Part shown: positions 3,737 through 57,701 of the stretch, in pieces
Layout of the letters: every line of letters starts with the position of its first letter
How positions within the stretch are numbered: the stretch's first letter is position 1
NCBI GenBank assembly: GCA_035221665.1
Contig: CM069131.1
Coordinates: forward strand, 27,590,001 to 27,654,000
DNA length: 64,000 nucleotides
Direction: 5' to 3'
Origin: Okamejei kenojei
Taxonomy: Eukaryota
Made by a program: the position numbers and the translations under genes
The notes under the pieces: generated by a model
Database searches by the model: none
What the model was told of the DNA's origin: nothing
The model's input: only the letters and a program-made list of their open reading frames with translations

Positions 3737-3901
3737 CAAAGTTTGAGAGAAGTGGACAGATTAGAGGCGCAACGGATGGAATTGCAGAGGGAAGCCAATA
3801 TTCTCATTGATTTCTTCTGTGAAGACAAAGAAACAATGAAATTAGAAGAATGCTTCAAAATTTTCCAAGACTTTTGTGATAGATTCAAAAAAGCTGTCAA
3901 G
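3737..3901 (+). CDS. FHDC1: FHDC1-like penultimate exon
   Basis: ccctgcag| acceptor, |gtaagt donor, 165 bp in phase 0. Encodes QSLREVDRLEAQRMELQREANILIDFFCEDKETMKLEECFKIFQDFCDRFKKAVK. Confidence 0.92.
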
Positions 3902-5552: not shown

Positions 5553-7977
5553 GAAAACAGAGACAGAGAAATTAAGGAACTCTGTCAACAACAAAGGCTA
5601 AAGGAATTGGAAGAGAAACGGCATTCGTGGGCTGCTGGTGAACGAAGTATCTTTGGAAGGAGTAGTAGCGAAAATGATGTGAAACTGCTCATCAAGGATG
5701 GACTACATGATCTTATAGCTTTCACTCATCCGAGATCTCTAAGCCCCGGGGGTGTAAAGAGAACTAGAAGCAGACGCTTACGCTCATCGGAAGGTTCTGC
5801 TATTGACAGCCATTTGTTGTCATTTTTGCAGGCTGCGAGTGCAGATGAACAAGCTAAGTCAAACAGTATCCCTCGTTCTGTTGCACGTTGCTCTAGACAG
5901 AGGGTAGCCTGGCAAGAGATGTCAGAAACCCGTGATGGAAGCTTAGATAGTGCCCACTTTGACTCCAATCAGGGCTGTGCTCAAACCACAGTTATAAAAG
6001 ATAGCTATGTCTGCATGGCTTCAGCTGAGCCATGCACTGCTAGGAATACAGAGACCGCTCCTACAGAGAACTTCACAAAGACTGAAAGTGAAATTGGTCA
6101 GCATGAACAAGATGCCTACAATAACAATGAGAATATAATAAAGGATAATGCCCACGCAACGTATACAGACATCACAAACTTAAACCAGATGATCGACTCC
6201 AAACAGCAGCTTGAGCTTCTTGAAGGTTTACAGATTTTCAATTACTCCAGTGTCGCTGACTCCAGCCAAGGAACGACCTGTGATGATGTTACACTAACAG
6301 ACCTCGAGTACACCGAAGACCTGAGTTTGCAGACTCCTACTACAGATGTGGGTTTGTCGACACCGAGTACAGATGTGAGTGTACAGAAACTCCAAGTACA
6401 GGTGTGGGTATGCAAACTGTTAGTACAGATGTGGGTGTGCAGACTCCCAGTACAGACGTGAGTGCGCAGACACCTAGTACAGATGTGAGTGTACAAACCC
6501 CTGGTACAGAGGAGAATTTGCAGACTGCTGATACAGATGTCAGTGTGCAGGCCTGTGACACAGATATGAGTCCCCTGATGTCTAGCACTAGTGTAGGCAT
6601 TCAGACATCTACTAGCTCTGATTCTGGTGTATTTTCTGGTCTGGTCTCAAAGGTATTTGATGGTGAGTCTTCCTGCTTTACGGGTTCTCGGTCATTACCA
6701 CAGAAAATAAAGAATACAGAAGGCACTGAAGTATCCATCCAGAGTTCAGATGCAGCTAATAACTCTGTCTTAAACAAGGAAAGCAGGACTGTGTTTTTTG
6801 TTTTGGGATATACAGGTGGTGGAGATGGTTCTGAAACTTCAGAGCAATGTGAAGTAAAAGCTGCCTGCCAGAAAATCCAAGTAGAATCACAATGCCAATT
6901 TAAAAGTCCTAAAGGAGACCACACAGAAGTTTCTTATGATTTGTCAGACATGAAAAGGGACAATCCTCTCATTCCCATTACCAAAAATATAACCATTAAT
7001 AATGACAATGCTATTGAGGCAGCCTCTGAGACAATGAACTTACCAAAGGTAGCAAAGCAGAATTGCAGTGGAAAGCAGCCTAGTATGGTTAGAGGAGAAG
7101 CATTGCCCACTCCAAAAACAACTTTGCATTATTTGAGCAGTCCAGTTCATCCTAAAACTTCAAGGACAACAAACCACCATAATAATGAGGAAATCAGGAG
7201 GGTTTTGCCAATATCAAAATCAAGTAGAAGATCCAATAGTGTCAGAAGACCAGAAGCAAAAGCATTAAGTAGTGATGAACAAAAACACTCTCAAAAGGCT
7301 TCAGGCTCAAAGTGGCGAGACAATTGGTCAAAGACTGCTCGCAGGTCCAGCTATCCAGTGGCAGACCAAAAGCCAACAAAAGAGACTGCTGCTTTGGCTA
7401 ATTCATCTAATAGCATTACAAAGCGTAAAGACTCGCTCAGAAAACCTAGTGCTAAGCCAGTCCGAAATATCCCCAAGCCAAAGCCTGATGAAAGCAGTAA
7501 GATTTGTCGCTCAGTTACAAGAAGCTTCCCCAGGCACAGCACAAGTACAGGTGGAACAACAGAATCCATGGAAGGAAATAGTAATTCAGCCTCACCAATG
7601 CTTACTCCCAGCTTTGCCAGAAACACTGTGGCCTCTTCCTCTCGACGCCAGAGGACAGATTCCAGACCGATTCCCAGCACATCCCCGCAACTCGCCAAAG
7701 CACCAAACCTCACCAGAACCTCTTCGCAGAGGCAAACAATGCAAAGTACGTTAGAACAAATCATACAAAGAGCAGTGAAAATACCAACATGAAACGGCCA
7801 AGTACCCCAAAACTGGGGACCAAGACTGAAGAGCAGGATAAGGCACCAACATGCAAAACACAGTCCACCTACACAGGCGACAACACTTTGCAAAAATCAA
7901 CTGAAAAGAAACACCTTCCAGCCACAGATTCCATTAGAAGCAAGAAAACTCCTGAAAGATCATCGAAGTGGAAGTAA
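5553..7977 (+). CDS. FHDC1: FHDC1-like large terminal exon (disordered, microtubule-binding tail); two apparent frameshifts near 6388 and 7740
   Basis: ccccatag| acceptor in frame with ORF 5607-6461 (GRSSSENDV). ORF 6404-7792 has RRVLPISKSSR, RKPSAKPVRNIPK, PSFARNTVASSSR and AKAPNLTRTSSQRQ, all FHDC1 C-terminal blocks. Probable final frame is 7789-7977; as assembled the frame stops at 6461. Confidence 0.85.
6309..6607 (+). repeat. Coding minisatellite: 11 x 27 bp (9 aa, consensus PSTDVSVQT)
   Basis: Units such as CCCAGTACAGACGTGAGTGCGCAGACA; the third unit is 29 bp. Confidence 0.9.
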
Positions 7978-18523: not shown

Positions 18524-18563
<40 letters not shown>

Positions 18564-22900: not shown

Positions 22901-23179
22901 TACTCACCCACAGTCTCACCACAGGCTTCTGATTTCTTGTGTGAAATGTGTAACTTTCTGCAATCTCTATGGGCTTATGAAGTGAGCATCAAGTTTTGAA
23001 AGAATAGTCTCAAATGAAACATTCCTTGCTTTCTCTGGGGCTAGGAAGTTGGTGAGAGTTTCATAAACATCGGGACCAATTTCAGTTAATAGAATGGCTT
23101 TCTTTCGTTCCTGGATAGCCTTGTTTTCTGCTCTTACCTGCACTTGATCATCATCCTGTTTCTTCAGCTTCAATAATTC

Positions 23180-23705
23180 TATTGTGTACAGTTTTGGTCT
23201 CCTAATTTGTGGAAGGATATCCTTGTGATTGAGGCAGTGCAGAGTAGGTTCATGAGATTGATCCCTGGGATGGCGGGACTGTCATATGAGGAAAGATTGA
23301 AAAGACTAGGCTTGTATTCACTGGAGTTTAGAAGGATGAGGGGGAATGTTATAGAAACATATAAAATTATAAAAAGACTGGACAGGCTAGATGCAGGAAA
23401 AATGTTCCCAATGTTGGGCAAGTCCAGAACCAGGGGCCACAGTCGTAGAATAAAGGGGAGGCCATTCAGGACTGAGGTAAGACATTTGTGGAATTCCCTG
23501 CCACAGAGGGAGGTGGAGGCCAAATCACTGGATAGATTTAAGAGAGAGTTAGATAGAGCTCTTGGGGCTGGTGGAATCAAGGGATATGGGGAGAAGGCAG
23601 GCACGGGTTATTGATTGGGGACGATCAGCCATGATCACAATGAATGGCGGTGCTGGCTCGAAGGGCCGAATGGCCTCCTCCTGCACCTATTTTCTATGTT
23701 TCTAT
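23180..23705 (+). mobile_element. CR1 3' fragment inserted in Gypsy gag
   Basis: ORF 23207-23614 (LGLYSLEFRR...WNSLP) plus the CR1 hairpin and (TTCTATGT) tail; Gag coding resumes on both sides. Confidence 0.9.
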
Positions 23706-24644: not shown

Positions 24645-27600
24645 TGTGGCGGCTCCCAAGGGTCGGGCCATCCTAACAGTCAAACCCCTCAGCACGGGAA
24701 TGGTGCAGTCCAGAGGCGGCCCTTAACCAGAGGGTTTAAAGGCAAGGGTTTTGGGTGCCATCTTGCTCTCATTGGACTTCCTGGCGAATTGAGAGACCTA
24801 AATAAAAAGGTACTTCCCCTACACCTGGCTTCTCGCCTTGATTTCGGATCGTACCCCACATTGTGACCCCGACGCTCCATCGTTGTCATGATGGAGAATA
24901 AAGCTTCCCCCTCAAATGCCAACCCGGCCCTGTCTCTGGACGCGGTCTCGGTGAAATTGCCTACCTTTGGACCACCCGGCCGCACATCTGGTTTCAGCAG
25001 ACGGAGGCCCAATTCAACCTGCGGGAATAACGTCGACCGACACTCGCTTCTATTATCTGGTGGGGGCCCTTGACCCGGACACGGTTGAAGAGGTCACAGA
25101 CTTCATCGCAGACCCTCCGGCCACCGAGAAATAACCGCGGCCTTAAGGAGTCCCTGCTTGAGATTTATGGTCTCTGCAGGATGGAGCGCGCTGCCAGGAT
25201 CCTTCATATGGAGGGCCTAGGCGAACCGACGGCCATCGAGCCTCCTCAAGGAGATGGTCGCGCTGTTGGATGGGCACAACGCCGTGCCTACTGTTCGAGT
25301 ATATCTACCTGCATCTGCTGCCGGCCTATATCCGTCTGCAGCTCACGGACGTCTCCTTCACAGACCTCAGGGCCCTCGGTAGGCGCGCCGACGCGCTGTG
25401 GATGGCGCGCCCAGATAACGTCAACGCGCTGGCCGTTGCCAGGCAAGGTAACGCGCTATGGACGGCGCGCTCTGATGACGTCAACGCGCTGGCCGTTGCC
25501 AGGCACGCTGACGCGCCGCAGACGGCGCGCTCCGATGACGTCACTCCGGCAGCTCCCGATTTCCTCCGGTGGGGCGGGGGAGCTGTGGAAGGAGTTGCAG
25601 CTGCATCCCGGAGGCCGATAAGATCGCCCCCCCACGGCCGCATCGGGTACTGCACCTGCAGTCCAGCACCAGCAAGCTCCAAGCGCTGCCAACAGAAAGC
25701 GCTGGTGCTATTACCACCAGCGCTGGGGCGCTGCAGCACGGAGATGCTGTCAGCCGTGCACGTTCCCGGGAAACGCCTGGGCCGCTGCCAATAGTCCCCC
25801 ACGGCTGCCGGCCAGATCCACCGACTCTTCTTGCCTGGGATCGGCGCTCCGGGACCCGCTTCCCTCGTCGATACCGGGCAGAGCTGAGCGTCCTGCCCCC
25901 TTCGCTGGCCGACATTCGTTCCGGTAAGCGGGGGCCCGTCCTCACCGCAGCGAATGGCAGCCCCATCCGCACGTATGGAATTCGCATGGTCCCGATCGTG
26001 TTCGGCTCCTGTCATTTCTCGTGCAGTTCACACACATTGCGGACGTCTCCCAGCCGTTGCTCGGTGCCGATTTTCCTCCGGCGCATTCCCTCCTAGTGGA
26101 CGTCAGGGCGTCAGCGTTTGGTCAACTCCGCCACGATGGAGCCGATCACGCTGCGATTGGATGAGCCGGTGGGACGGCCCCCTGTCGTCAGTGGATTCCC
26201 GCTTCGCCCGGGTATTAGCCGCGTTCCCGAATATACTGACCCCACAGTTTTCGGTTTTCGACCCCCAGTCACGGGTGGTTCATTTCATCCAAACTACTGG
26301 CCCACCTCTCCACGCACGAGCACGCCGACTGCCGCCGGATAAACTACGTCTGGCACGGCAGGAATTCCGCACAATGGAGTCCTTGGGGATCGTCCGCCCT
26401 TCAAGCAGCCCATGGGCATCCCCACTCCACATGGTCCCTAAAGCAAGCGGGGGCTGGCGACCCTGCGGGGATTATCGGCGGCTGAATGCCGCAACAACCG
26501 CAGATCGATACCCCGTATCCCACATACAGGACTTCACCGCCCATTTGACTGGGGCTACTATATTCTCCAAAGTGGATCTGGTACGGGGTTATAACCAGAT
26601 CCCAGTCCACCCGGAGGATGTACCCAAGACGGCGATCATCACGCCGTTCGGCCTCTATGAATTCCTGCGGCATTCCAACGCCTGATGGACGGGGTGTGTC
26701 GCGGCCTGGACTTTGTTTTTGTCTACCTCGACGACATTCTGGTGGCCAGCCGCTCACAGCAGGAGCACTGCGCCCATCTCCGGCAGCTTTGTCAGCGGCT
26801 CAGCGAGCATGGCTTGGCTGTCAACCTCGCCAAGTGCCGTTTTGGGGTAACAGAAATCGACTTCCTCGGCCACCGCGTGACTTCGCAAGGCGTGGTTCCC
26901 CTGTCGGACAGGGTCGACGCCATCCGTCGGTTTCCTCGGTGCGAGGCCTGCAGGAGTTTGTCGGAATGGTGGCATTTTATCACCGTTTTGTGCCATCCGC
27001 AGCCCACATCATGCGGCCACTGTATCAACTGCTGGGGGGTGGGCAGCATAAGAACGTCGAGTGGACCAACGCGACGGTGGCAGCGTTTGACGGTGCGAAG
27101 GAGGCCCTTGCTCGGGCCGTACTGCTGGAGCATCCGCGGGAAAATGCCCCGACAGCTCTCACGGTGGACGCCTCGGAGTCTGCAGTCGGTGCCGTGCTGG
27201 AGCAACTGACGGACAGAGGTTGGCGGCCCCTCGCCTTCTTCAGCCATCACCTCAACCGCGCTCAGGCCAAATACAGCGCATTCGATCGCGAGCTCCTGGC
27301 TCTGTACCTGGCGGTGCGCCATTTCCGTTACTTTCTGGAGGCCGCCCGTTCACCGCGTACACGACCACAAGCCGCTCACTTTCGCCCTGGCAAAGGTTTC
27401 CGACCCCTGGTCCGCACGGCAGCAGCGGCAGTTGGCCTACATTTCAGAATATACGACATCCATTCGCTACGTCGAGGGGAAGGAGAACCGGGTGGCCGAC
27501 GCATTGTCCCGCCCCGCCATCGACGCCGTTTTCGCGGTGGCACCAGGAATCGACTTTTCTGCCCTGGCGGATGCGCAGCTCACGGACGCTGAGATGCCCG

Positions 27601-29104
27601 CCTACCGGACTGCCATCTCCGGCCTTCGCCTTGAGGATTTCCCCCTCGGTCCTGGACGGGCGACGATCTTGTGCGATGTGTCGTCCGGTCAGCCGCGCCC
27701 CATCGTCCCTGCCGCCTGGCGCCGGAGGGTTTTCGACGTGATCCACGGGCTGGCTCACCCATCAATCCGGGCGACGACGACACTGGTGGCTGCTCGGTTC
27801 ATGTGGCACGGTCTGCGCAAGCAGGTTGGCCACTGGGCTCGAACCTGCATTCCGTGCCAGACGGCAAAGATCCAGCGGCATGTCCGGGCACCCCCTCCAG
27901 GAGTTCGGCCTACCTCACCGGATTCGACCACCTCCATGTGGACATCGTGGGGCCTCTTCCGCCGTCCCGGGGCATTACCCACCTCCTCACTATGGTGGAC
28001 CGCTTCACTAGGTGGCCGGAGGCCATTCCCTTGGCTGATACTGCAACGGCTACGTGCGCTCGTGCGTTGTCCGCGCACTGGATTGCTCGCTTTGGGGTGC
28101 CGTCGCACATTTCCTCGGACCGGGCACAGTTCACCTCCGAGCTGTGGTCGGCCATGGCTCACTTGTTGGGGTGCGGCTACACCACACCACGGCTTTATCA
28201 CCCGCAAGCCAATGGACTGGTGGAGAGGTTCCACCGGCAGCTCAAGTCAGCGCTGAAGGCACGACTCTCCGGCCCGGACTGGATGGACGAGTTGCCTTGG
28301 GTCTTGTTGGGTATCCGGACTGCCCCCAAAGAGGATTTGGCCTCATCATCGGCGGAGCTCGTATACGGGTCGCCCCTCACGGTGCCCGGGAGTTCATGCC
28401 GTCGGCACTGGGGCAACAAGGAACTCCCTCATCCACTCTAAAGCGCCTTCGCGAGCGAGTTGGCAGCCTCGCACGCCGTCCCGATGTCCCGCCATGGGAC
28501 ATTTCGCCCGCATGTGCCATCAGCCCTCCGGGACTGCCCCTAACGTTTTCCTGCGCCGTGATGCCCACCGGACGCCGCTGCAGAGGCCGTACGAGGGCCC
28601 ATTCCGAGTGCTGCAACACGGGCAGACGACCTTTGTGTTGGACATGGGGGGCCGCCCGGAGACCGTGTCAATTGACCGGTTGAAGCCGGCACATCTGGAC
28701 ATTGACCAGCCAGTGCTGGTTGCCCGACCTCGGCCTCGAGGGCGCCCTCCCTCACGGCTCCCTCCGCCTGTCCTCCCACCGGTCCCTCCACCTGTCCCTC
28801 CACCTGTGCTCCCGCACTCCCGCACGCAGTCCGGCCGTGCTGTGCGCCCGCCGGAGCGTTTCGTACCTCAGGTTCTGGGGGTGGTCCTGTGGCGGCTCCC
28901 AAGGGTCGGGCCATCCTAACAGTCAAACCCCTCGGCACGGGAATGGTGCAGTCCAGAGGCGGCCCTTAACCAGAGGGTTTAAAGGCAAGGGTTTTGGGTG
29001 CCATCTTGCTCTCATTGGACTTCCTGGCGAATTGAGAGACCTAAATAAAAAGGTACTTCCCCTACACCTGGCTTCTCGCCTTGATTTCGGGATCGTACCC
29101 CACA
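24645..29104 (+). mobile_element. Full-length young Gypsy LTR retrotransposon (CsRn1-like)
   Basis: LTRs at 24645-24860 and 28888-29104 differ by 1 substitution and 1 indel; tRNA-Trp-like PBS ttgtgaccccgacg; G-rich PPT at 28876-28887. Gag VSVKLPTF with CHCC knuckle (CYYH-x9-C-x3-C, 25706-25759); [22 protein letters not shown]; RNase H TVDAS/YSAFDRELLA; integrase HVDIVGP...NGLVERFH and GPF. Confidence 0.95.
24888..28919 (+). pseudogene. gag-pol of the CsRn1-like Gypsy (many 1-bp frameshifts as assembled)
   Basis: Domains continue across ORFs starting at 24888, 25270, 25954, 26685, 26618, 27432, 27671 and 28494. Confidence 0.85.
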
Positions 29105-32100
29105 TATATATATATATATATATGTATATATTCTTGTTATATGTATTTAATTAAAATAAAGTATTATATAGAAAAAAAGAGAGATTTTAGTATACATCTT
29201 AATAGTGAATAACACAATTTCAAATAGCGATATCAATAGAGACATGTATACAAATCAAAAAGAAAAACAGAGAGTTATTTTCATCTAATCCTGCCGGGTA
29301 CCCATTGAGTTGTGGTGCCAAGAACAGCTACCCCTTCAAATATTCTGTATATGGAAACCATATCTGTTCAAAGAGTTCGTATTTGTCCATTAGGACAAAT
29401 CTGATTCTTTCCAAATGTAACGTCTCCAACATTTCCACTGTCCACATTTTAATTGTGGGGGATAATGTTCCCTTCCAAAATTTCAATATTAATTTTTTTC
29501 CCTATTATCAAACAGTAATCCAAGAAATTTCTTTGGTTTACTGTTAATATTAGATTTGAATCCGGAACTCCTAATATTATTAATTTTGGATCTGGGTCTA
29601 GTTTAATTTTAAGAACTTCAGAGATAACTCTAAAGATTTCTGTCCAATAATAATTAAGTTTTATACATGTTACAAAACTATGCGTTCAATTAGCTTCCAA
29701 GTTCTGACATTTATCACAAATAGGAGAAATGTTAGAATAAATTCTATTCAATTTCGTTTTTGAATAATGTAATCTGTGTAATACGTTAAATTGTATCAAT
29801 ATATGTCTAACATTTAATGAGCAACGATGTATAGATTGTAGGCTTTTTTCCCAAGTTTACTTCGTTATAGATAAACCCATTTCATTTTCCCATGTTTGTC
29901 GATATATTTCCGAAGTTGGGATTTCCTTATCCAAAATAGTATTATATATATACGCTATTAATTTTTCTGTATTTGGGTGTTTATTAAACAATTCATCTAA
30001 TAATCCTGGTTTTCTATTTTTATAGTCTTGCGTATTTGACTTAATATAATTTCTAATTTGTAAATACCTAAATATGTTATTTGACTGCAATCCATAGATA
30101 TCCTGTAACTCTTGAAATGAAATAAATTTTCCTTCCTTGTAAAGGTGTTCTATCCTTTTAATTCCTAAATCATTTCAGTGTTTAAACCCCTTGTCCAATA
30201 CAGAGGGCTTAAACAAAGGATTATTCATAATTGGCAAACAAAGTGACAAATTATCCATATGTAGGGTCTTAACTATTTGTTTCCAAATACGTCTATTGCT
30301 TTGATTTATAGGGTTATTACCATACTTTTTTTTTTGTACTTCCCTTGGTGCAAAAAGAATCGAACCTACATCAAAAGGCAAACAGTCTTCCTTTTCCATC
30401 TTTAGCCAGCTTGGTTCATGATCTAAATTTACCAACCAAAAATTCATATTCTTAATCTGAACTGCCCAGAAATAATATAGGAAATTTGGTAGTGCTAGTC
30501 CACCATTTATTTTAGATTTACATAGATGTTTTTTACTTATTCGATGGTTTTTATAGTCCCAAATAAAACTATTAACCAAAGTATCTATATTCTTAAAAAA
30601 AACATTTTAGGGAGATATAAAGGGATTGCTTGAAATAAATATAACAATTGTGGTAAAAAAATCATTTTTATAGCATTTATTCTACCGATCATTGATATAG
30701 GTAGTGTTTTCCAATATAAAATATATTTTTTTTAGTTTATTTAATAATTGAGGGTAATTATATTTAAATAGACAGTTATACGATTTAGATACATTAATTC
30801 CTAGATATTTGAGTTTGTCCGTGACTATTTTAAGTGGGAATTGTTCTAATATATTTAATTTTATTCCAGTTATAGGCATAATTTAACTTTTATTCCAATT
30901 AATTCTATACCCAGAAAATGTACTAAACTTAGTTATAACATTAAATAGATTGGGAATACTAATCTCCGGTTTTGTAATATAAATTAAGATGTCATCTACG
31001 TATAGAGATATTTTATTCGTTGTAGTTTTGGTATTATATCCATATATTTCTGGTTCTGATCTAATCATTTCGGCTAATGGTTCTATTACCAGAGCAAATA
31101 GTAATGGTGATAACGGGCATCCTTGTCTACAACCCCTCAAGAGTTTAAATTTTGCTGATAGCATTTGATTTGTTAATATTCTTGCAGTTGGATTCGAGTA
31201 TATGATTTTTACCCCATTTGGAGAATCTATCCCCCAGTTGAAATTTCTGCATTATTTTAAATAAATAATGGCCATTCAACCTGGTCAAATGCTTTTTCAG
31301 CATCTAAGGATATGACAGCTAGTTCAATATCATTCACTCTTTTTGAGTACATGACATTGAATAGACGTCTCAGATTATAGGATGAATAGCGTTTTGGAAT
31401 AAAACCTGTTTGGTCATGATGTATTAATTTATTAATCACTAAACTTAGCCTCCGAGATAAAATTTTTAGTTAGTATTTTTTTGATCAGTATTTAAAAGAG
31501 CTATTGCTCTGTATGATCCAGGGTCTTCCAAATCTTTATCAGCTTTAGGGATAAGTGTAATTGTAGACTCATTTAATGATTCTGGTAACTTTCCTTGTTC
31601 ATAAGCATATTTATATATTGTATGTAAGCGTGGAGAAATCAGATCATGAAACTTCTTATAAAATTCAACACCTAAGCCATCGGGGCCTGCGGCTTTTCCG
31701 TTATTTAATGATCCAATTGATTCTTCAATATCTTTCACTGATATATCAGCGTTTAACAAGTCTCTACCTTCCTGATCTAAACTATTAATATGACATTCTT
31801 GTAGGAATGTTTCCATTCCATCTGATTGTCCTGCTAGTTTAGATAAGTAAAGATTTTGATAATATTGTAAAAATGTATCATTGATATCTTTTGGTAAAGT
31901 CAATATTTCTCCTTGATCAGATCTAATTTTATGTATCATTTTCTCCTCATCTAATTTTCTAAGCTGTCGTGCCGGTAATTTTTGTGGTTTATCCCCAAAT
32001 TCAAAGTGTACTTGTTTAGTCTGTTGAAAAAGTTTAATAATCTGATTTGAGTATATTTTATTTAGCTTGTATTTTAGATGCAATTTTATTACTTAATCCC

Positions 32101-35100
32101 TTAGAAGGGGATATTGCATTTTCAATATCTAATTGTTTTATTTCATTTTCCAACTTTCGTTGAGTCTTTCGATTTTCCTTATTAAAGTATGCGTGTGCTG
32201 ATATTATCGCCCCACACATAAATGCTTTAAATGTATCCCAGAGCAATGATGGTGAAATTCCAGGTTTGTCATTAGTTTCAAAAAATAATTTAATCTGTTT
32301 TACCAAGTAATCATAACAAGCCCTATCCTTTAATATTTGGGGGTTGAGTCTCCAGTTGGAGGTTTTAATAATTATATCTTTTAATTTTATCTTAAATGTT
32401 AATGGAGCGTGATCCGAGATAATAATATTATGATATTTTGAGTCATATGTAAATGGGATTAATTTTGAATCTATTAAAAAATAGTCTATCCTCGAGTAGG
32501 TTCCAAATACAGGTGAAAAGAATGAATATTCTCGACCAGATGGATTATCAATTCTCCAGATATCCCTAACGTTTGCTGTATTAATAAAAGAATTTATAAA
32601 TGTATTTGACTTAGAAGTGGTTTTCCTTTTCGTTGATGATCTATCTAAATAATTATCTAAGGTACAATTAAAATCATCTCCAATTATTAGATTATTTTGA
32701 GTGGATATAGGGATATTGTTAAATATTTTCTTGAAGAATAATGGATTATCAAAATTAGGACCATATATATTCATAAGGATTACTTTTTTAGAATATAATT
32801 CACCTGTAATTATTATATATCTACCCTCAACATCTTCTATTATTGAGCTTTGTTTAAAAGGTATACCTTTACGAATAATTATTGCTACCCCTTTAGACTT
32901 ATGTGTAAATGAAGAGTGATATACTTTGGAAATCCATTTTGCTGTTAATCTATACTGTGCATCTTTCTTAAGGTGTGTCTCTTGGAGAAAAATAATATCA
33001 GATTTCAATCTATTTAATTGAGCTGCTACACCGCCTGCATGTAATGCAAGGATGGGAAGCAAGCTGACGGAGCAAGGGGTGAGAGATATCCCCGCTGGCC
33101 ATCTGCTCCACCCCGGATCCACAAACACTGAGCTTTATTCTATGCTCACCAAGGGATTTATTTCATTTTTATAAACTGCTGTACAAATATAAGAAAAGGA
33201 TATTCTATGCAGAATTATTCCAAACTCCCGAGCTATAACAGGGAGCCTGGTTCAAAAAACTGGAGGCGGCGCTGGAGTAATTAAGAGGGTGTGCGGATGG
33301 TGCAAGGAGCCCAGTCCAGACATCAAAAGGCGAAGTCCCCTCTGGAAAAAATTCACGTCGGCGCTGGTCAGGTCCAGCATCCAGTAATTACCCTTGCCAG
33401 GGACATCGTAATGTCGAACATTTAACAAAACAACAGCTGATTAAGGCTGATGTTGTGGAGGGTGAAGTTCTGCCAGCCTTGCTTGTTCTCAAAAGTAGGG
33501 AAAAAACCCTCATGATGAACTCGTAGCTGCGGTCAGCGGATGACGACGGCTTTGGAGACGCCGACTTAGAGCCACCGGCAGTTCAGCCAGCAGCAGCAAC
33601 TCCGGTGCTTTAAAGCACTGTGGCCACTCCTGTCGGGAGGCAGGCCAAGAGTAAATTGTCCAGGTCTGTCAACTCTGATGAGTGAAGCCAGAAGATTTTT
33701 TCCTAAAATGAACATTGGGGATGTCTGGACAACGTGGAACACCTCATAGCCGAAATAATACAACCAGGAGGAGTTCCAGCCGGGGTTTATACCCCAGGGT
33801 CCCCAGCAGCTTTCAGCAGCAACCTCTAGCAGAGGTCCGTTAAGCAGAAGAGGCCTACGAGTCTGCATGGGGACCCAGCACAGCAGCATCTTGTTTAGGG
33901 CTGTGTGTGTGACCTCCCGTGAACATCAGCCGGGAGAACCAGGGCAGTATGAATCTGACCCTGAAGTTTGGTATCACTGCTTATGTGCATACACCAAAGC
34001 ACATGAGCTATGCTCCAGGTGTGCCGGATGTGGTCAGCAATTTGCCGTACTGGCGGGAACTGGTGAAGCCAGGGATGACAATCTGGCCAGCAATTTAATG
34101 GCCTCTCACCAGTTCCAGGACTCAATAATGGAGGAAATCTTCGCAAGACATATCAAACACCTGTTAACTGTGCATCGCTCTAAAGGAGCGCATCATGAGA
34201 GCGCATGAGGTAAGGCTGCAGAAGTCCTAAAAAACTGGTTGGAGCAGGAACAATGGCGTTTGGGCAAATGGTACAAGGCCACTATCTAAACACAGCAGGA
34301 TATGGACCCTGCTGTGCAAATGCCCATTTTTTAGAATTTAATACTCACGAATAACCATCCAGCCTACGTTCAACCCACGGTTTACAGCCTTGCGCAGATC
34401 CTCTAATATCCAGGGAAAGACCTGGACGATGAGACAAAAACTGAGACCAGGATGCCACCTCTAAAACCATACCCTTTCAGATTAGGAAGGGGTAATTGAA
34501 TATTGGACTGTATCCGGGGATCTCGAATAAGGTATCTCGGAAGTACATCCACCCGTACAAAATACACCTAGTCGGGTATTGGGGTTTTTAATACCACTAA
34601 CTCTACAGGTTAATGATGCATATCAGCCTTAACAATTTGTGTCCAATATTCCCCAGCCAAAAGAACGATGGTGGGTGTCGAGTCATTCTGGGCCTAATCA
34701 TACTTAACTCTTAAGGTCCAGTATAAACGGTTTTTAAAAAAAAAATCGGTATTGTAACTGGGATCAAAAGGGTGTTATATGGCAGCCATAGATCTGAAAG
34801 ATGCATAATATTCAGCTACCAAACACCTGTTGAGAGGTTGGATTCCTCGCCCATCTAATTAAAATCAGATTAGTACCATTTAGAATGATTGGCTAATTGA
34901 GGTTCATCATTGATTTAATTCACATGGCAGTACTTTGCCTATGGCCAAAACTGTAACTAATGTCTCGCGATGTACTAGAAACATTCTGACTCAATAACCT
35001 TTAGTTTACAAACTGATGTAAGCGCTTCAGGATGAGGAGCCACTGATATTGAGTCTGGCTGTGGCGGCAGATAGAATGTGAAAGAAGCATTAGCCCTGCA

Positions 35101-37020: not shown

Positions 37021-37250
37021 ACAGCAGAACTGGCCGCCACTTCCGAGGAAGGAAGCAGCTCGGGTGACTGACTTTGAGCGGCCGCCGGGACCCGACAGCA
37101 GACACACACACACACACAGATACACACAGACAGACAGAGAGAGACACACACACACACACAAACAAATACACACAGATACACACAGACAGCAAAACTGGCT
37201 GCCACTTCCGAGGAAGGAAGCAGCTCGGGTGACTGACTTTGAGCAGCCGC
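37021..37250. repeat. ~165-bp tandem repeat with (CA)-rich spacer, running into the assembly gap
   Basis: acagcagaactggccgccacttccgaggaagg... at 37021 and again at 37186. Confidence 0.8.
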
Positions 37251-40256: not shown

Positions 40257-40632
40257 TTACTTCGGAGTCACGTGAGTGACTACGTGAAGAAGCCCCGCCG
40301 GGCGCTTGATCGGCATTACGTCGACGCTGACGACAGAAGCAAGAGCTGCAGAGCGCAGCTCCCCCCAGCGGTAAGAACGGGCCCGCAGGTAAGTGAAATT
40401 GATTTACTTTAGGGCGTTCTTAAAAACCGTTACACTGGCGTATAGAACCAGCAAAGTGAAAGTAAAAATTTTTACAAAAAATCAGAGTCACGCTGGCGTA
40501 CAGATCCAGCAAAGATAAAAAATTGAAACAAAATGGAGGTCTCAGAGGAAGATTTCGCGGGTAAAAAGATCGTCCCGGGGAGAGACTAAAGAGTCGGGAC
40601 AAGAGATTAGTGCGGAGCCGGTTCCGATACCG

Positions 40633-41772
40633 GTGGCCGTTGATTCACTCGTTAGTGAGACTATAATTCCTCCAGAAACTAAAACTACGGAGGAAAATGT
40701 GCCTAAGAAAAGTAAAAAGAAATCCGTGAGGCCCGTGGCTTCTGATGATGACTCTGATAATGAAAGTCCTCCGGATAATAAAGCTATATGGCTTAAAATG
40801 GAACGTATGGAGAAATTGCTCCAAAATATTATAAGACAAGGGTCAAAGAACCCAGAATTTTCCCAAACAGACCCTGAGGGGTTTGAATATCCAGAATATG
40901 GCTATGTTCCAAATTGGGAATATGAAACTCCAGACCCAGGATTAAGGGTGGAGGAAGTCTCCTTTGATGAAATCCCAGGAGTATCAGGGCTGCAAGAGAC
41001 AGACCCTGAAAGTGGTGATGTGGATTATGAGTGCACAACACAAATAAAAAAGAAAAGGTCATATGTGCCTGATATGGCAAAAGATTTTGCTATGCCTGAA
41101 GGAAGTGGTGAGGCTATGGAAGAAAACCTAGCTGCCAGCATTAATTATATGGTATCTCACCAACTTCAAGATTCTGTTATGGCTGAAACAGCAGAATTAT
41201 ATAAAACACCAGAAAATTGCACCTCATTGAGGGTACCTACGGTTAATCCGTCTATATGGACACCTATGTCATCAGTCATGAGAGGACAAGAATTAAGGTT
41301 TCAAAGAATCCTCGAACTGATTTCAGCTGCCATTACTGCCTTTGGAAAGCAAATGGAAGGGTCAGAAATGATCAAAATCCAAAGAGATACATTGGGCTTA
41401 TTGTGCAATTCCTTTTATGAAATCAATTGTATGAGGAAAATTGCGATTCGGCCCATATTTCATCCTAGATTTTCAGGTCTGTGCCAATCAAGTGGTGTTC
41501 AATCTCCTGGTTATCCATTTGGAGCAAACCTGCCTAAACAAATAAGAGAAATGGATGAAGAGGCTAAATCTATTAGCTACATGAGACCTTTCGTTTTTGG
41601 ACGAAAAAGGTACTATACACCAAGAAGGGGATCTGATTTTGGAACAAACAGAGGCAGGAGTATGGTAAGGAAATATTACCATCCAACACAGCCTAATGTT
41701 CACCCATATATGGGGAGAAGGAGGTACAAAAACTTTATTCTGTTCTTAAAGGAACTATGGACGAATCTCTAG
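40633..41772 (+). CDS. DIRS gag-like ORF
   Basis: 379-aa open frame upstream of RT, with PENCTSLRVPTVN; homologous to the decayed copy near 34080. Confidence 0.7.
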   Translation: MAVDSLVSETIIPPETKTTEENVPKKSKKKSVRPVASDDDSDNESPPDNKAIWLKMERMEKLLQNIIRQGSKNPEFSQTDPEGFEYPEYGYVPNWEYETPDPGLRVEEVSFDEIPGVSGLQETDPESGDVDYECTTQIKKKRSYVPDMAKDFAMPEGSGEAMEENLAASINYMVSHQLQDSVMAETAELYKTPENCTSLRVPTVNPSIWTPMSSVMRGQELRFQRILELISAAITAFGKQMEGSEMIKIQRDTLGLLCNSFYEINCMRKIAIRPIFHPRFSGLCQSSGVQSPGYPFGANLPKQIREMDEEAKSISYMRPFVFGRKRYYTPRRGSDFGTNRGRSMVRKYYHPTQPNVHPYMGRRRYKNFILFLKELWTNL

Positions 41773-43200
41773 TTGGTGGGAGATTACAAATGTTTTATGA
41801 TGAATGGCTTTGCATCACATCTGACCAGTTTATTTTACAAACGGTTTCAGGAACTCCAATAACATTTAAAGAAGATGTTGATTCTCCGGTACAATATAAA
41901 CCTATTCATGGTTTCATGTTCTCTGCTATTGAGGAAGCAGAAATTAATGTGGAAATTGACAAATTGTTTAAAAAAGGTGGTATTGAAAAAACTGTTGAGC
42001 ATCCACACCAATTTGTGTCAAACATCTTTCCAAGAGATAAAAAAGATGGTGGTTGTAGAATTATTCTGGACTTTACAAACTTTAATACATTTGTCCAGTA
42101 TAAACATTTCAAGATAGAAATGTTCAACACTGCAAAACATTTGATATCAGCAGGTTGTTATATGGCTACAATCGATTTAAAGGATGCGTACTATTCAGTA
42201 CCAATACATCGGTTTTTCGGAGGTACTTAAAATTTAATTGGCTGGGACAGCTGTGGCAATTTAAAGCATTACCTAATGGGTTAAGTTCAGCTCCTAGGCT
42301 CTTCACAAAGCTGTTGAAGCCAGCTTTAGTACAATTAAGAGCACAAAAACACATTGTTATGGCTTATCTGGATGACATTTTAATTGTCAGTAATAGTCAG
42401 GAATCAGCTGGAAAATAAGTTTCAGCAACTAAACCTTATTTGAAAAACTAGGGTTCCTGATTCACCCAATTAAGTCCAAGCTGCAGCCACAAACAATTAA
42501 TTATTTAGGTTTTGTGATTAATTCAGTTACTATGTTAGTAACTTTGCCAACGGACAAGATTGTTGATATTTCAACTGTATGTTGGGGCCTCATTCACAAA
42601 CCTTATCCCTCCATCCGAGAAGTAGCAAAGGTTATTGGTAAATTAGTAGCAGCATTTCCTGCAGTGGAATTTGGTCCATTACATTACCAAAACCTTCAAA
42701 GGGACAAAATGCAAGCTTTAAAAAAGCGAGCAGGCCATTTTGATAGGCCTATGCAATTAACAAAAGAAGCTTTATTGGAATTACAATGGAGGATTGAAAA
42801 TGTTCCACATGCTGCTAAAAACATTTTAATATAGCATCCTGAAGCATTTTTACAAACAGATGCAAGTGCTTTCGGATGGGGGGCGACAGATAAATTTACC
42901 AGCTGTGGGGGCAGGTGGACTGTCCAAGAGGAATTGTTTCTCCAAACATATGGTATTAAATATTTGGAGTTATTGGGAGCATTTTATGCATTAAAAGCCT
43001 ATTGTTCTACAAAAAAAGGATCTGCATGTCCAGGTACAATTAGACAATAAGACAGCTGTTACATATATTAATCACATGGGTGGAGTAAGATCGGTATCAT
43101 GTGATTGTCTGGTCAATCAGATATGGCATTGGTGTATTGAGCGCTAAATTTGGGTTTCAGCAAGTTATATCCCAGGTAAAGACAATGTGGTGGCAGACAA
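41757..43200 (+). pseudogene. DIRS reverse transcriptase / RNase H (disrupted)
   Basis: VGGRL, KKDGGCRIILD, IDLKDAYY, LPNGLSSAP, YLDD; RNase H LQTDAS, LELL, LDNKTAV; contains stops and frameshifts. Confidence 0.9.
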
Positions 43201-43645
43201 CAGATCAAGGGTATTTAAAGACAACACAGAATGGATGTTGAACCCACAAGTTTTCAGTAAAATTGTTATTCTCTATGGGTTACCAGACATTGATCTGTTT
43301 GCATCAAGATTAAATCATCAATTGCCTAAATATGTGTCTTGGGAACCCGATCCAGGTGCGGTAGCAGTAGATGCATTTTCGCTACATTGGGGAAATATGT
43401 TCTTTTATGCTTTCCCTCCATTTGGCCTGGTTAGGCAATGTCTTAAGAAAATAGAACAAGATTCTGCCACAGGACTGTTGGTGATTCCAAATTGGCCCAC
43501 ACAACCATGGTTCCCGTTGATGTTAAATATGATTAAGGAACCATGTATGTCAATTCCTAGCTGCAGTGATTTGTCAATACAACCAGTAACAAAAGAAATT
43601 CATCCATTACATGTTCATATGAATTTGTTAATCTGCAGGTTTTGA
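43187..43645 (+). CDS. DIRS Dam-like N6-adenine methyltransferase domain
   Basis: IDLFASRLN (SAM-binding motif I-like), DAF, YAFPPF (motif IV-like), PNWPTQPWF. Confidence 0.8.
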   Translation: MVADNRSRVFKDNTEWMLNPQVFSKIVILYGLPDIDLFASRLNHQLPKYVSWEPDPGAVAVDAFSLHWGNMFFYAFPPFGLVRQCLKKIEQDSATGLLVIPNWPTQPWFPLMLNMIKEPCMSIPSCSDLSIQPVTKEIHPLHVHMNLLICRF

Positions 43646-44630
43646 CCAGACCACTACAAGGGCTTGGACTGTCGGATAGGACCATGGATGTTATAGTCTC
43701 ATCCTGGCGAGATAGCACTAAGAAACAATATATGACACAAATAAAGAAATGGGAAGTTTTTTGTAGACAATCAAATATATCTTATCATACTGTGAATATT
43801 TCAAACATATTGGAGTTCCTTGCTGAGTTGTATTTTGAGCAGCACTTGAGTTATAGTGCCATTAATAGTGCTCGTAGTGCTTTATCGTCCTATTTAGGAC
43901 AAATTTCTAACCATGAATCAATTGGATCTCATCCATTAATATCCAGGTTTATGAAAGGAATTTTTAACAAAAATCCGCCCAAGCCAATATATATAGAAAT
44001 TTGGGATGTCAGCATTGTACTTACTTTGCTTAGGCAATGGACTCCAATCACAGTAATGTCTTTGAAAAAATTAACATTTAAAGTAGTAATGTTAATGGCG
44101 TTGGTATCAGCACAAAGAGTGCAAACATTACAAATGCTACGTTTAGATTGTATGCATATATCGGGACTAGGGGAAAACAAATGGTCGGCACGGACTGGAA
44201 GGGCCGAGAGGGCCTGTTTCCGTGCTGTAATTGTTATATGGTTACATGGTTATATGGCTTCAGATAACATTGTGTTTTACGTTTATGATCTGATCAAACA
44301 AAGCAGACCAGGAAGAACTGTAGCTAAGGTAATGTTTCAAGCTTACCCTATTGATCCAACATTGTGCATAGTTAGACACTTGACTCAATATATAAAAGTA
44401 ACCGAGAGTCTTCGAGGTGATGAAAAAGCGTTATTTATTACACATAAGAAACCACACACAAAAGCATCAGTATAAACCATTTCTAGATGGTTAAAACAGG
44501 TGTTACTTTTAGCAGGAGTAGACACTGATGTGTTTAAATCTCACTCCACCAGGGCTGCAGCTACGTCCGCGGCGAAGTTACAGGACGTACCGCTCAAACA
44601 CATTTTAGAAGCCACAGGGTGGTGTAAACT
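43642..44630 (+). pseudogene. DIRS tyrosine recombinase (nonsense codon at 44473-44475, in-frame CR1 insert)
   Basis: SWRDSTKKQY, SAQRV (catalytic Arg region), KQSRPG; after the TAA the frame continues TISRWLK...FKSHSTRAAATS...GW. Confidence 0.88.
44158..44253 (+). mobile_element. 96-bp CR1 tail inserted into the YR gene
   Basis: Matches the reverse complement of about 11930-12025. Confidence 0.85.
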
Positions 44631-45604: not shown

Positions 45605-46168
45605 GTCATAGAGTCATAGAGTAATACAGTGTGGAAACAGTCCCTTCGACCCAACTTGCCCACACCGGCCAACAATGTCACAGTTACACTAGTCCCACTT
45701 GCCTGCGCTTGGTCCATATCCCTCCAAACCTGGCCTACCCATGTACCTGTCTAAGTGTTTCTTAAACAATGGGATAGTCCCAGCCTCAACTACATCCTCT
45801 GGCAGCTTGTTCCATATACCCATCACCCTTAGTGTAAAAATGTTACCCCTCGGATTCCTATTAAATCTTTTCCCCTTCACCTTGAGCCTACGTCCTCTGA
45901 TCCTCAATTCCCCTACTCGAAGCAAGAGAATCTGTGCATCTACCCGATCTATTCCTCTCATGATTTTGTACACCTCTATAAGATCACCCCTCATCCTCCT
46001 GCGCTCCATGGAATAGAGACCCAGCCTACTCAACCTCTCCCTATAGCTCACACTCTCTAGTCCTGACAACATCCTCGTAAATCTTTTCTGAACCCTTTCA
46101 AGCTCGACAGTATATCTTTCCTATAACATGGTGCCCAGAACTGAACACAATATTCTAGATGCAGTCTC
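45605..46168 (-). mobile_element. CR1 3' fragment (second subfamily)
   Basis: ORF 45689-46072 LGLYSMERRRMRGDLIEVYK...WNKLP; (CTATGACT) tail. Confidence 0.9.
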
Positions 46169-46170
46169 AG

Positions 46171-47443
46171 TAGGCGAGATCGGTCAAAGTCAGCACGGAT
46201 TTATGAAAGGGAAATCGCGCTTGACTAATTTTGGAATTTTTTGAGGATGTAACAAGTAGAATAGATAAGGGAGAGCCAGTGGACGTGGTGGATCTAGACT
46301 TTCAAAAAATCTTTGACATGGTCCCACACAAGAGATTAGTGTGCAAAATTAGAGCACATGGTATTGGGAGTAGGTTATTGACATGGATAGAGAACTGGTT
46401 GGCAGTCAGGAAGCAAATTGTAAGAATTAACTCGTCCTTCTCAGAATGGCAGGCAGTGACTAGTGGGCTGCTGCAAGGCTCATTGCTGGGACCCCAGTTG
46501 TATACAATATACATTAACGATTTAGATGAGGAAATTAAATGTAACATCTCTAGGTTTGCGGATGACGCAAAGCTGGGTGGCAGTGTGAGCTGCGAGGAGG
46601 ATGCTATGAGGCTGCAGGGTGACATGGATAGGTTGGGTGAGTGCGTAGAAGCATGGCAGATGCAGTATAATGTGGATAAATGTGAGGTTATCCACTTTGG
46701 TGACAAGAACAGAAACGCAGATTATTATCTGAATGGTGTCAGATTAGGAGAAGGGGAGGTGCAATGAGACTTGGGTGTGCTTGTACATCAGTCACTGAAA
46801 GTAAGCATGCAGGCACAGCAGGCAGTTGGCCTTCATTGCAAGAGGATTTGAGTTTAGGAGCAAAGAGGTCCTACTACAGATGTACAGGGCCCTGGTGAGA
46901 CTGCACCTGGAGTATTGTGTGTAATTTTGGTCTCCTAATTTGTGGAAGGACATTGTTGCTATTGAGGGAGTGCAGTGTAGGTTCACCAGGTTAATTCCCG
47001 GGATGGTGGGACTGACATATAATGAAAGAAAGGGTCAACTGGGCATGTATTCGCTGGAATTTAGATGGATGAGAGGGGATCTTATAGAAACATATCAAAA
47101 ATCTTAGAGGATTGGACAGGGTAGTTGCAGGAAAAATGTTCCAGATGTTGGGGGAGTCCAGAACCAGGGGTCACATTTTAAGAATAAGGGGTAGGCCATT
47201 TAGGACTGAGATGAGGAAAAACTTTTTCACCTAGAGAGTTGTGAATCTTTGGCATTCTCTGCCGCAGAAGGCAGTGGAGGCCATTTCACTGGATGTTTTC
47301 AAGAGAGTCTTAGCTCTTAGGGCTAAGGGAATCAAGGGATATGGTGAAAAAGCCAGAACGAGGTACTGATTTTGGATAATCAGCCTCAAAGGGCCGAATG
47401 GCCTACTCCTGCACCTATTTTCTATGTTTCTATGTTTCTATGT
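46171..47443 (+). mobile_element. CR1 RT and 3' end
   Basis: ORF 46231-46767 LDFQKIFD...QGSLLGP...FADD; (TTCTATGT)n tail. Confidence 0.92.
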
Positions 47444-56499: not shown

Positions 56500-57701
56500 T
56501 AGCACTACCTCTCCCACCTCAACAACAGAGACACCTTCATGAGAATGCTGTTCATCGACTTTAGCTCAGCATTTAACACCATTATCCCCTCCAAACTGAT
56601 CACCAAACAGCGACCTGGGCATTGACCCCTCCCTTTGCAACTGGATACTGGACTTTCTAACCAACGCCTTTTCAACCCTCACCCTGAACACCGGCGTTCA
56701 CAGGGCTGTGTGTTGAACCCTCTCCTCTACTCCCTCTTCACCTATGACTGCGCACCTGTACATGGTACTAACACCATCATCAAGTATGCAGATGATACAA
56801 CAGTGATTGGCCTCATCAGCGACAACGATGAGTCGGCCTATAAGGAGGAGGTCCAGCTCCTAGCAACATGGTGCGCTGACAACAACCTGGCCCTTAACAC
56901 CAAGAAGACCAAGGAGCTCATTGTGGACTACAGAAGGTCTAGGAATGGCACGCACACCCCCATCCATATTAATGGGACGGAAGTGGAGCGTGTTTCCAGC
57001 TTCAGGTTTCTGGGGGTCAACATTTCTGATGACCTCTCTTGGACCCACAATACCTCAACACTGGTCAAGAAGGCTCACCAGCATCTCTTCTTCCTGAGGA
57101 GACTAAAGAAGGTCCATCTGTCTCTTCAGATTCTGGTGAACCTCTACTGCTGCGCCATCGAGAGCATCCTTACCAACTGTATCACAGTATGGTATGGCAA
57201 CGGCTCTGTTTCTGCCTGGAAAGCACTGCAGAGGGTGGTGAAAACTGCCCAACCGGTTCCTCACTCCCCTCCATTGAGTCTGTCCAGAGCAAGCGATGTC
57301 TGCGAAGGGCGCGCAGCATCGTCCAGGACTGCTCTCACCCCAACCACAGACTGTTTACCCTCCTCCCATTCGGGAGACGCTACAGGTCTCTCTGTTCCCG
57401 GACCAACAGGTTCAGGAACAGCATCTTCCCTGCGGTTGTTACACTGCTTAACTCCGCACCTTGATGATTGCCAGTCACCCCCACCCCCCGGACACTCCTT
57501 TCCCTAGTGACTGAACTCCCCCCCCCACCCCGAAAATTGCACTACTGCTACTATATATACACATATATATGTATTTTACTGTTCCATTATTCCGTGTTCG
57601 CACTTCTGGGTGAGATGCTAACTGCATTTTGTTGTCTCTGTACTCGTACACTACACAATGACAATAAAGTTTGAATCTTTGAATCTGAATCTGAATCTGA
57701 A
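56500..57701 (+). mobile_element. Rex1/Babar LINE RT and 3' end
   Basis: [45 protein letters not shown]; AATAAA and (TGAATC)n tail. Confidence 0.88.

Follow-up and report, generated by a model that had tools for sequence, protein, structure and literature searches.

A tandem nine-residue array in the FHDC1 tail of elasmobranchs resembles a multivalent LC8 client

Introduction

Does a slippage-prone repeat in the tail of a skate formin serve as a set of docking sites for LC8 (DYNLL1/2)? We addressed this question in a stretch of 64,000 nucleotides of Okamejei kenojei DNA (hereafter the window), for which the original prediction, made from the letters alone, had proposed that a minisatellite expansion gave a formin an LC8-stiffened spacer between its FH2 domain and its microtubule-binding tail. 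In formins, the FH2 domain and the coiled coil that follows it hold two tails side by side. A literature search, with most subscription journals outside its coverage, returned no paper that links FHDC1 to LC8/DYNLL1 or describes the array. LC8 is absent from the main text of an FHDC1 paper that reports Cep170, EB1, Snap29 and Arl2 as neighbours of FHDC1 (PMC6080654), and neither FHDC1 nor four unit motifs were found in four supplements of PMC6607443.

Results

An intact FHDC1 gene with two assembly errors

The final three coding exons of FHDC1 lie in the window, all on the plus strand, as are the features of this gene described below. The first (2065-2182) lies within FH2, has AG/GT ends and is 87% identical to the FHDC1 protein of Amblyraja radiata (P0001). 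The second (3737-3901) ends the FH2 domain, is 95% identical to P0001 and matches Pfam FH2 with an E value of 7e-8, a match that falls short of Pfam's cut-off on so short a piece. The coding part of the last exon (5553-7977) follows an AG acceptor and runs through the end of the coiled coil and a predicted disordered tail to the stop codon at 7975-7977, with 90-92% identity to P0001 in three segments. Within this tail, a conserved C-terminal block at 7439-7642 is where the microtubule-binding region putatively starts, judging from residues 958-1143 of human FHDC1. The original prediction had spoken of an FHDC1-like formin; with 87-95% identity to A. radiata FHDC1 over five segments, and with FH2 and then a long tail carrying the conserved C-terminal block found together, the gene can be named FHDC1.

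As assembled, the reading frame of the last exon is broken twice. Unit 3 of the array has 29 bases (6369-6397), and the contigs of all four sequencing runs omit the two surplus bases at 6385-6388, thus removing the +2 shift that the original prediction had to correct before it could read the array in frame. The second shift, which that prediction did not list, stems from one C missing at 7741-7743 and would, if real, remove the last 78 residues; again, the contigs of all four runs contain the base. Three of the runs are of one organism and come from three studies, the fourth (X11) is of a related species, and X1 is possibly the window's own source. Contig X7 starts at 5553; its loose letters there match the end of the upstream exon, and it crosses the array in frame. 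It thus joins two exons and is a spliced contig that carries the array in frame; its status as a transcript is drawn from this joining, no run being recorded as RNA, and the contigs are uninformative on expression level. Both frameshifts are assembly errors in an intact FHDC1, and a pseudogene reading was rejected because both are missing from all four runs and X7 is spliced and in frame.

Elsewhere, the window consists mostly of transposon remains (1-1650, 23177-23614, 25000-29000, 30175-33134, 40519-44475, 45689-46767 and 56626-57507), which from their translations we take to be CR1-type LINE pieces, a frameshifted Gypsy-type LTR element, an L1-type element and a DIRS-type element. The Gypsy-type element contains a GC-rich 60-bp repeat at 25391-25543. 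A run of N at about 37070-37250 (160 in the window) stands beside an AC repeat and is flanked by what appear to be two copies of one short stretch, and a run of 39 G occupies 18524-18562; both runs are possible further weak points of the assembly.

Eleven units in a predicted disordered tail

The coding array spans 6315-6613 (6309-6607 in the register of the original prediction), its 299 bases being 11 x 27 + 2. It consists of eleven tandem units of 27 bp, or nine amino acids, with the consensus TDVSVQTPS, and QT is intact in the same eight units (1, 3-8 and 11) that had been listed from the sequence. The label 'DVGVQT' array needs a small correction, as DVGVQT is present once only. TRF reported the array at 6322-6550 with periods of 27, 54 and 81 (scores 146, 216 and 180). 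Directly before it lies the block DVTLTDLE (6285-6308), which in the alignment is recognisable in bony vertebrates and locates the orthologous site that gave rise to the array. In run X11, a 9-base in-frame insertion at 6516 falls inside unit 8, and unit 6 has an Ala-to-Val change towards the consensus.

In P0001, the array occupies residues 475-582; some 230 residues separate it from the coiled coil upstream and some 275 from the conserved C-terminal block downstream. That the tail is disordered agrees with an AlphaFold2 model, in which pLDDT is below 50 over residues 316-1036 of P0001 and about 28 over the array; this model, built from a shallow alignment of 11 sequences, is the one source of support for the claim. 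Pfam gave no domain on the FHDC1 tail, a PDB sequence search with the array returned two chance matches only, and the ESM Atlas gave no usable match. Directly after the array, at 6620-6637, both the window and P0001 have DSGVFS and P0083 has DSGAFS, while none was seen at that place in six of six sharks. DSGVFS fits the beta-TrCP degron consensus DSGxxS.

Distribution and origin of the array

Alignment of orthologues for presence and copy number, one of the checks suggested at the outset, placed the array at the same site in all seven named elasmobranch FHDC1 proteins, with 3 units in sawshark, 8 in basking and bamboo shark, 11 in zebra shark and catshark, 12 in thorny skate and 15 in horn shark. 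An array of 11 units is also present in four of four further proteins of the skate cluster. Period-9 matches numbered 3-55 in the seven elasmobranch tails; in the remaining 60 first hits, which include 41 named bony vertebrates, there were 0-2. Among 29 further hits the number was 0 in 27, the two exceptions being eels with a different repeat at another site, and none of these 89 other hits had the array at the elasmobranch site. The original prediction knew of no such array in human FHDC1, and there is none at this site in the bony-vertebrate FHDC1 proteins examined. The protein searches recovered no chimaera, stingray or lamprey FHDC1, and the age of the array is bounded by skates and sharks only.

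In the alignment, the array is an insertion behind a block that is still single-copy in coelacanth, lungfish and ray-finned fish. The shark consensus TDVSLQTPD and the skate consensus TDVSVQTPS have seven of nine residues in common, and the 120-residue flanks share 38-58%. Units of 27 bp in 3-15 copies, elasmobranch-specific among the sequences found, are in line with the minisatellite expansion that had been postulated. The eel repeats are separate: P0109 and P0115 (FHDC1-like proteins of conger and European eel) carry a 9-residue tandem repeat S-V-S-A-S-T-N-E-x at about 750-850 and 775-880, downstream of the elasmobranch site, with the same period and a V-S-x-x-T register and with no Gln. 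These tails with a repeat of their own indicate that the FHDC1 tail takes up such repeats.

A search with the array among 1.84 billion representatives gave 31 matches, including period-9 QT arrays in unrelated proteins. We used one of these, the membrane protein P0123 of red abalone, as a negative control. Its period-9 DVVVQT array, with 28 QT at about 240-510, lies between SEA and Ig domains and is extracellular by domain order; LC8 would be absent there, so LC8-like nonamer arrays can arise without LC8. Another protein, P0148, has six period-9 units of the EVSTQTP type at about 360-415, a canonical TQT array, together with C2H2 fingers and a Pox_A32-like ATPase stretch.

Fit of the units to the LC8 motif

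The published position rules for LC8 binding (PMC6607443) have Gln at 0, mid-sized buried residues at -1 and +1, Asp preferred at -4, where its side chain forms a hydrogen bond, a large residue at -3, no aromatic residue at -2, and Pro, Asp or Glu preferred at +2. The skate unit fits these rules at -4 (Asp), -3, -2, 0, +1 and +2, which bears out the resemblance first noted from the sequence. The flanks of the interior units likewise have what is found in LC8 clients, including the lack of an internal Pro, with D at -4 in 53/54 and P, D or E at +2 in 42/54. The caveat that Pro often follows QT was mistaken, and we rejected it as an objection to LC8 binding, since Pro is among the favoured residues at +2 (PMC6607443).

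The anchor T/V/I-Q-T at -1, 0 and +1 is found in four of the eleven window units (3, 5, 7 and 11), and shark units have LQT. By a hand count of the 79 training binders in PMC6607443, Asp occupies -4 in 31 and Ser or Gly -2 in 39, whereas at -1 there are 6 with Val, 7 with Ile and none with Leu, so that the LQT anchor occurs in 0/79 strong binders of this table. The affinity table of PMC12057147 contains one LQT site among 57 distinct ones, Nup159 QT5, with 13 uM; it also contains near-identical measured binders, namely ZFPM1, SON, 53BP1 QT3 and KIBRA QT1, with 0.45-1.6 uM. The nearest tested peptide, from ANKIB1 with S-D-V-S-S-Q-T-P, is a listed non-binder, as is an LQT peptide from PLK1, and only 7 of 19 matrix-predicted peptides bound in that study (PMC6607443).

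For motif scoring, we rebuilt the amino-acid half of LC8Pred (the volume/polarity half is not included) from hand counts, with one reading of the pseudo-count and a background of FHDC1 proteins. Three of the ten scored window units passed the cut-off of 12.9, with scores spanning 13.2-15.9. These are unit 5 (TDVGVQTPS, 6425-6451; 15.0-15.9), which is the best LC8-like site, and the candidate sites in unit 7 (TDVSVQTPG, 6479-6505; 13.2-14.3) and unit 11 (TSVGIQTST, 6587-6613; 13.2-13.8), the IQT of the latter being kept in six of six skate sequences. Unit 3 was not scored; by the reads it is of unit 7's type, which makes four window units of passing types. The shark LQT consensus reached 8.0-8.7 and thus failed. 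A permissive rule set, allowing Leu and Met at -1, found 38 motifs in the seven elasmobranch tails, compared with 5 in the 60 other tails. P0001 alone has 7 where shuffled sequences average 0.29, but repetition itself inflates such counts. A predicted complex of four LC8 chains with two copies of 6422-6529 scored 0.14 against a mark of 0.34, with controls not folded and with peptides outside the tool's calibration, and was counted neither for nor against binding; the LC8 chain used was P0068, a Drosophila sequence 97% identical to lungfish LC8.

Conservation of the units and alternative readings

Among the 44 interior shark units, distinct departures from the consensus numbered 8, 0, 2, 0, 2, 5, 6, 8 and 10 at positions -5 to +3, events that are not fully independent because some are common to zebra and bamboo shark. 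The nine positions differ in how much their residues change (p 0.002), and the groove positions (-4 to +1) had 15 events against 26 at the three positions outside (p 8e-5). Asp shows no departure at -4 and 10 distinct departures at +3, outside the groove. A residue fixed at one place and free at another points to position-specific constraint rather than to residue mutability. The original prediction had named beforehand, as one outcome that would speak against it, Q and T being no more conserved than the other positions of the repeat. This outcome was obtained: Q0 and T+1 together had 11 events and the other seven positions 30 (p 0.46). Indeed, they vary more than D-V-S-L (11 against 4 events, p 0.002). 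The anchor should be the most fixed part of an LC8 site, so this variability counts against the LC8 reading.

Codons could be compared in the window only. The Q/T/P codons of units 1-8 had 6 silent and 4 replacement changes against an expected silent share of 0.26 (p 0.024, post hoc), and all codons of units 1-11 showed a silent excess (p 0.019); the test was not significant in seven of nine variants, and a first pass gave p 0.09-0.23. That whole-unit codon tests are mostly not significant favours the rival that survives best, a tolerated coding minisatellite in which a 27-bp segment of the tail slips and is homogenised in each lineage, the QT being there by chance and the array acting as a length spacer at most. 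The same explanation accommodates the copy number of 3-15, the lineage-specific consensus, the decay of the array ends, the independent 9-residue repeat of eels in the same tail, and the period-9 QT arrays in unrelated proteins, one of them extracellular. Moreover, the -5 codon is identical in nine of the ten window units with Thr at that position, silent site included, which is a sign of homogenisation at the DNA level. What speaks against mere tolerance is the uneven amino-acid change, with Asp fixed at -4 and free at +3, and the rarity of rule-passing motifs: 5 in the 40,829 residues of 60 other tails, so that a random nonamer fits about once in 1000, although a genome scan examines many repeats and thereby offsets this figure. 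On balance, we consider a tolerated minisatellite rather unlikely.

The conservation of D-V-S-L, the most fixed part of the shark units (4 events, 44 units), could also mean that the D-V-S-L(Q) core is a beta-strand motif for some other reader or for self-association, like the D-V-x-L-P strand-and-turn repeats that we take to be those of AHNAK-type proteins. Similar alternating motifs occur upstream of the array in bony vertebrates, and the top matches of the array search include several large repeat proteins with PDZ domains, in one of which a stretch nearly matches two units. These matches, however, are of low complexity with 30-35% identity, no structure is predicted over the array (pLDDT about 28, from a shallow alignment), Pro every nine residues opposes long sheets, and no partner can be named, which leaves this reading quite improbable.

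A ladder of S/T-x-x-S/T is the relay pattern of casein kinase 1, and DSGxxS is a phosphodegron type. Multisite phosphorylation that sets charge, turnover or microtubule binding would be suggested by S/T at every third residue (-5, -2 and +1, in 43, 51 and 42 of 54 interior units), by a Thr-Pro site in each unit and by the DSGVFS that follows the array directly in both the window and P0001. It is quite improbable as the array's role, given that all three ladder positions are intact in only 30/54 units, that conservation is among the lowest at T+1, P+2 and T-5, that the skate Gly for Ser at -2 suits LC8 and breaks the ladder, and that the DSG site is missing at its place in six of six sharks. 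Phosphorylation could nevertheless switch candidate LC8 binding off, and in that sense it is compatible with the LC8 reading.

Spacing of the sites

The original prediction had cautioned that a spacing of nine residues is tight, and so it proved, since an 8-residue motif at period 9 leaves a linker of one residue. Published linkers have 3 residues between QT2 and QT3 of ASCIZ (PMC10046861), 3-4 in KANK1 and 4-5 in Nup159 (PMC12803091), and 3-9 in solved LC8 structures (PMC12797016); in the accessible text on these ladders there is no linker below 3 and no spacing below 11 residues. With a period of 9 against 11-12 in ASCIZ QT2-3 and KANK1, a fully packed ladder is doubtful, and the spacing of at least 11 residues seen in LC8 clients is reached only with alternate units. 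In the KANK1 model, 15 dimers take up 53 nm, or about 3.5 nm each, which exceeds the length of nine extended residues (about 3.1-3.4 nm at 0.34-0.38 nm each) and makes alternate occupancy likelier (PMC12803091). The window's intact consensus sites stand on alternate units 1, 3, 5, 7 and 11, giving five usable candidate sites. Alternation of intact and broken units was put to 18 permutation tests in five lineages, from which P0006, P0007 and every skate but one had been dropped, being kin or too short. In the predicted direction, p values were at least 0.03, one of the 18 being below 0.05; we did not accept this as support.

Of the roughly 610 residues that separate the coiled coil from the conserved C-terminal block, the array makes up about 108; it cannot stiffen the whole spacer from FH2 to the microtubule-binding tail, as had been envisaged. 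With about 230 residues before and 275 after it, the tails could be paired and partly extended, without a rigid bridge between FH2 and the microtubule-binding end. In the human protein, association with microtubules has been reported for the central disordered region itself (PMC10985548).

Discussion

The array in the FHDC1 tail is real, in frame and transcribed. Among the sequences found it is confined to elasmobranchs, where it differs in copy number and is unevenly conserved. Its sequence resembles that of a multivalent LC8 client, and we do not class it as one in view of the spacing and of the conservation of the anchor. Our tentative reading is that the array is a weak multivalent LC8 client, born as a minisatellite and kept under selection. 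This reading is favoured by an array that is in frame and transcribed, by its presence at the same site in seven of seven elasmobranchs, by the fit to the position rules and by the constraint on groove over outside positions. It is weakened by the variability of Q and T, the shark score of 8.0-8.7, the ANKIB1 and PLK1 non-binders and the one-residue linker, and likewise by the copy number of 3-15, the lack of an array in bony vertebrates, the extracellular abalone QT array and the eel repeat. In our judgement, the candidate skate array would probably bind LC8 in a tube, which is somewhat likelier than LC8 docking being its function.

Within the sequences found, elasmobranchs have multiplied a short piece of the FHDC1 tail into a coding minisatellite with a 27-bp unit; mild selection may since have maintained the copies as weak docking sites for LC8 (DYNLL1/2). 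If these work as the sites of KANK1 and Nup159 do, LC8 dimers would add D-V-S/G-V-Q-T strands of the two tails to their two grooves, zipping the tails into a parallel duplex. If every second unit were filled, about five dimers would cover some 15-20 nm at 3.5 nm a bead, with the tail flexible on both sides. The likely effect would be to pair and partly extend the microtubule-binding tails and to tune avidity or reach, and no FH2-to-microtubule rod is expected. Prior dimerisation of the formin, together with cooperativity, might make weak sites effective, much as in KANK1, whose peptides fail singly although the array binds LC8 cooperatively below 1 uM (PMC12803091); self-association domains are common near LC8 sites (PMC12017986). 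With the anchor shifted from LQT to VQT in skates, skate sites are predicted to be stronger than those of sharks. It is possible, if doubtful, that the minisatellite is a length-tunable LC8 zipper on the formin, which would take up one to about seven dimers according to repeat number, on alternate units or packed at period 9.

If LC8 binds, a slippage-prone repeat would have created a multivalent hub-binding element in one step, with a valency that varies between species, and would bring lineage-specific control to an actin-microtubule crosslinker tied to cilia and Golgi. FHDC1 would be the first formin LC8 client within the literature searched and, if LC8 can pack at period 9, the tightest LC8 ladder known. 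The arrays would also offer a natural series of 3 to 15 uniform sites, LQT against VQT, in which spacing and site strength can be related to cooperativity and register. The accessible literature leaves unsettled both the shortest linker of an LC8 ladder and how uniform sites avoid off-register pairing, and natural arrays test both. If LC8 does not bind, the array is a coding minisatellite of an ordinary kind, and what lasts is the finding of two assembly frameshift errors in an intact FHDC1.

Lastly, the array can be compared with known systems. Vertebrate FHDC1/INF1 is the orthologue, with FH2, coiled coil, long disordered tail and C-terminal block (PMC6080654, PMC10985548), but bony-vertebrate FHDC1, unlike that of elasmobranchs, has no array at the site. 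The abalone array of P0123 is alike in its period-9 D-V-x-V-Q-T units and variable copy number, whereas that of FHDC1 lies in the cytosol and has outlasted the split between skates and sharks. Nup159 and ASCIZ/ATMIN also have several QT-anchored motifs in one disordered region (PMC10046861, PMC12017986), and the VQT, IQT and single LQT sites of Nup159 are like the skate and shark units; their linkers are of 3-5 residues or more and their sites diverse, whereas the FHDC1 array has a one-residue linker and near-identical units. The L2 linker of KANK1 (PMC12803091, a preprint) is, as in FHDC1, disordered and part of a cytoskeletal adaptor; it runs from a coiled coil to a microtubule-linked end, has many weak sites set close together and is proposed to form an LC8-zipped duplex. 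KANK1 sites are non-repetitive, lie 11-12 residues apart and have been shown to bind (7 to 15 dimers, seen as rods by EM), whereas the candidate sites of FHDC1 are known from sequence and are tandem copies at period 9, lineage-specific and variable in number.
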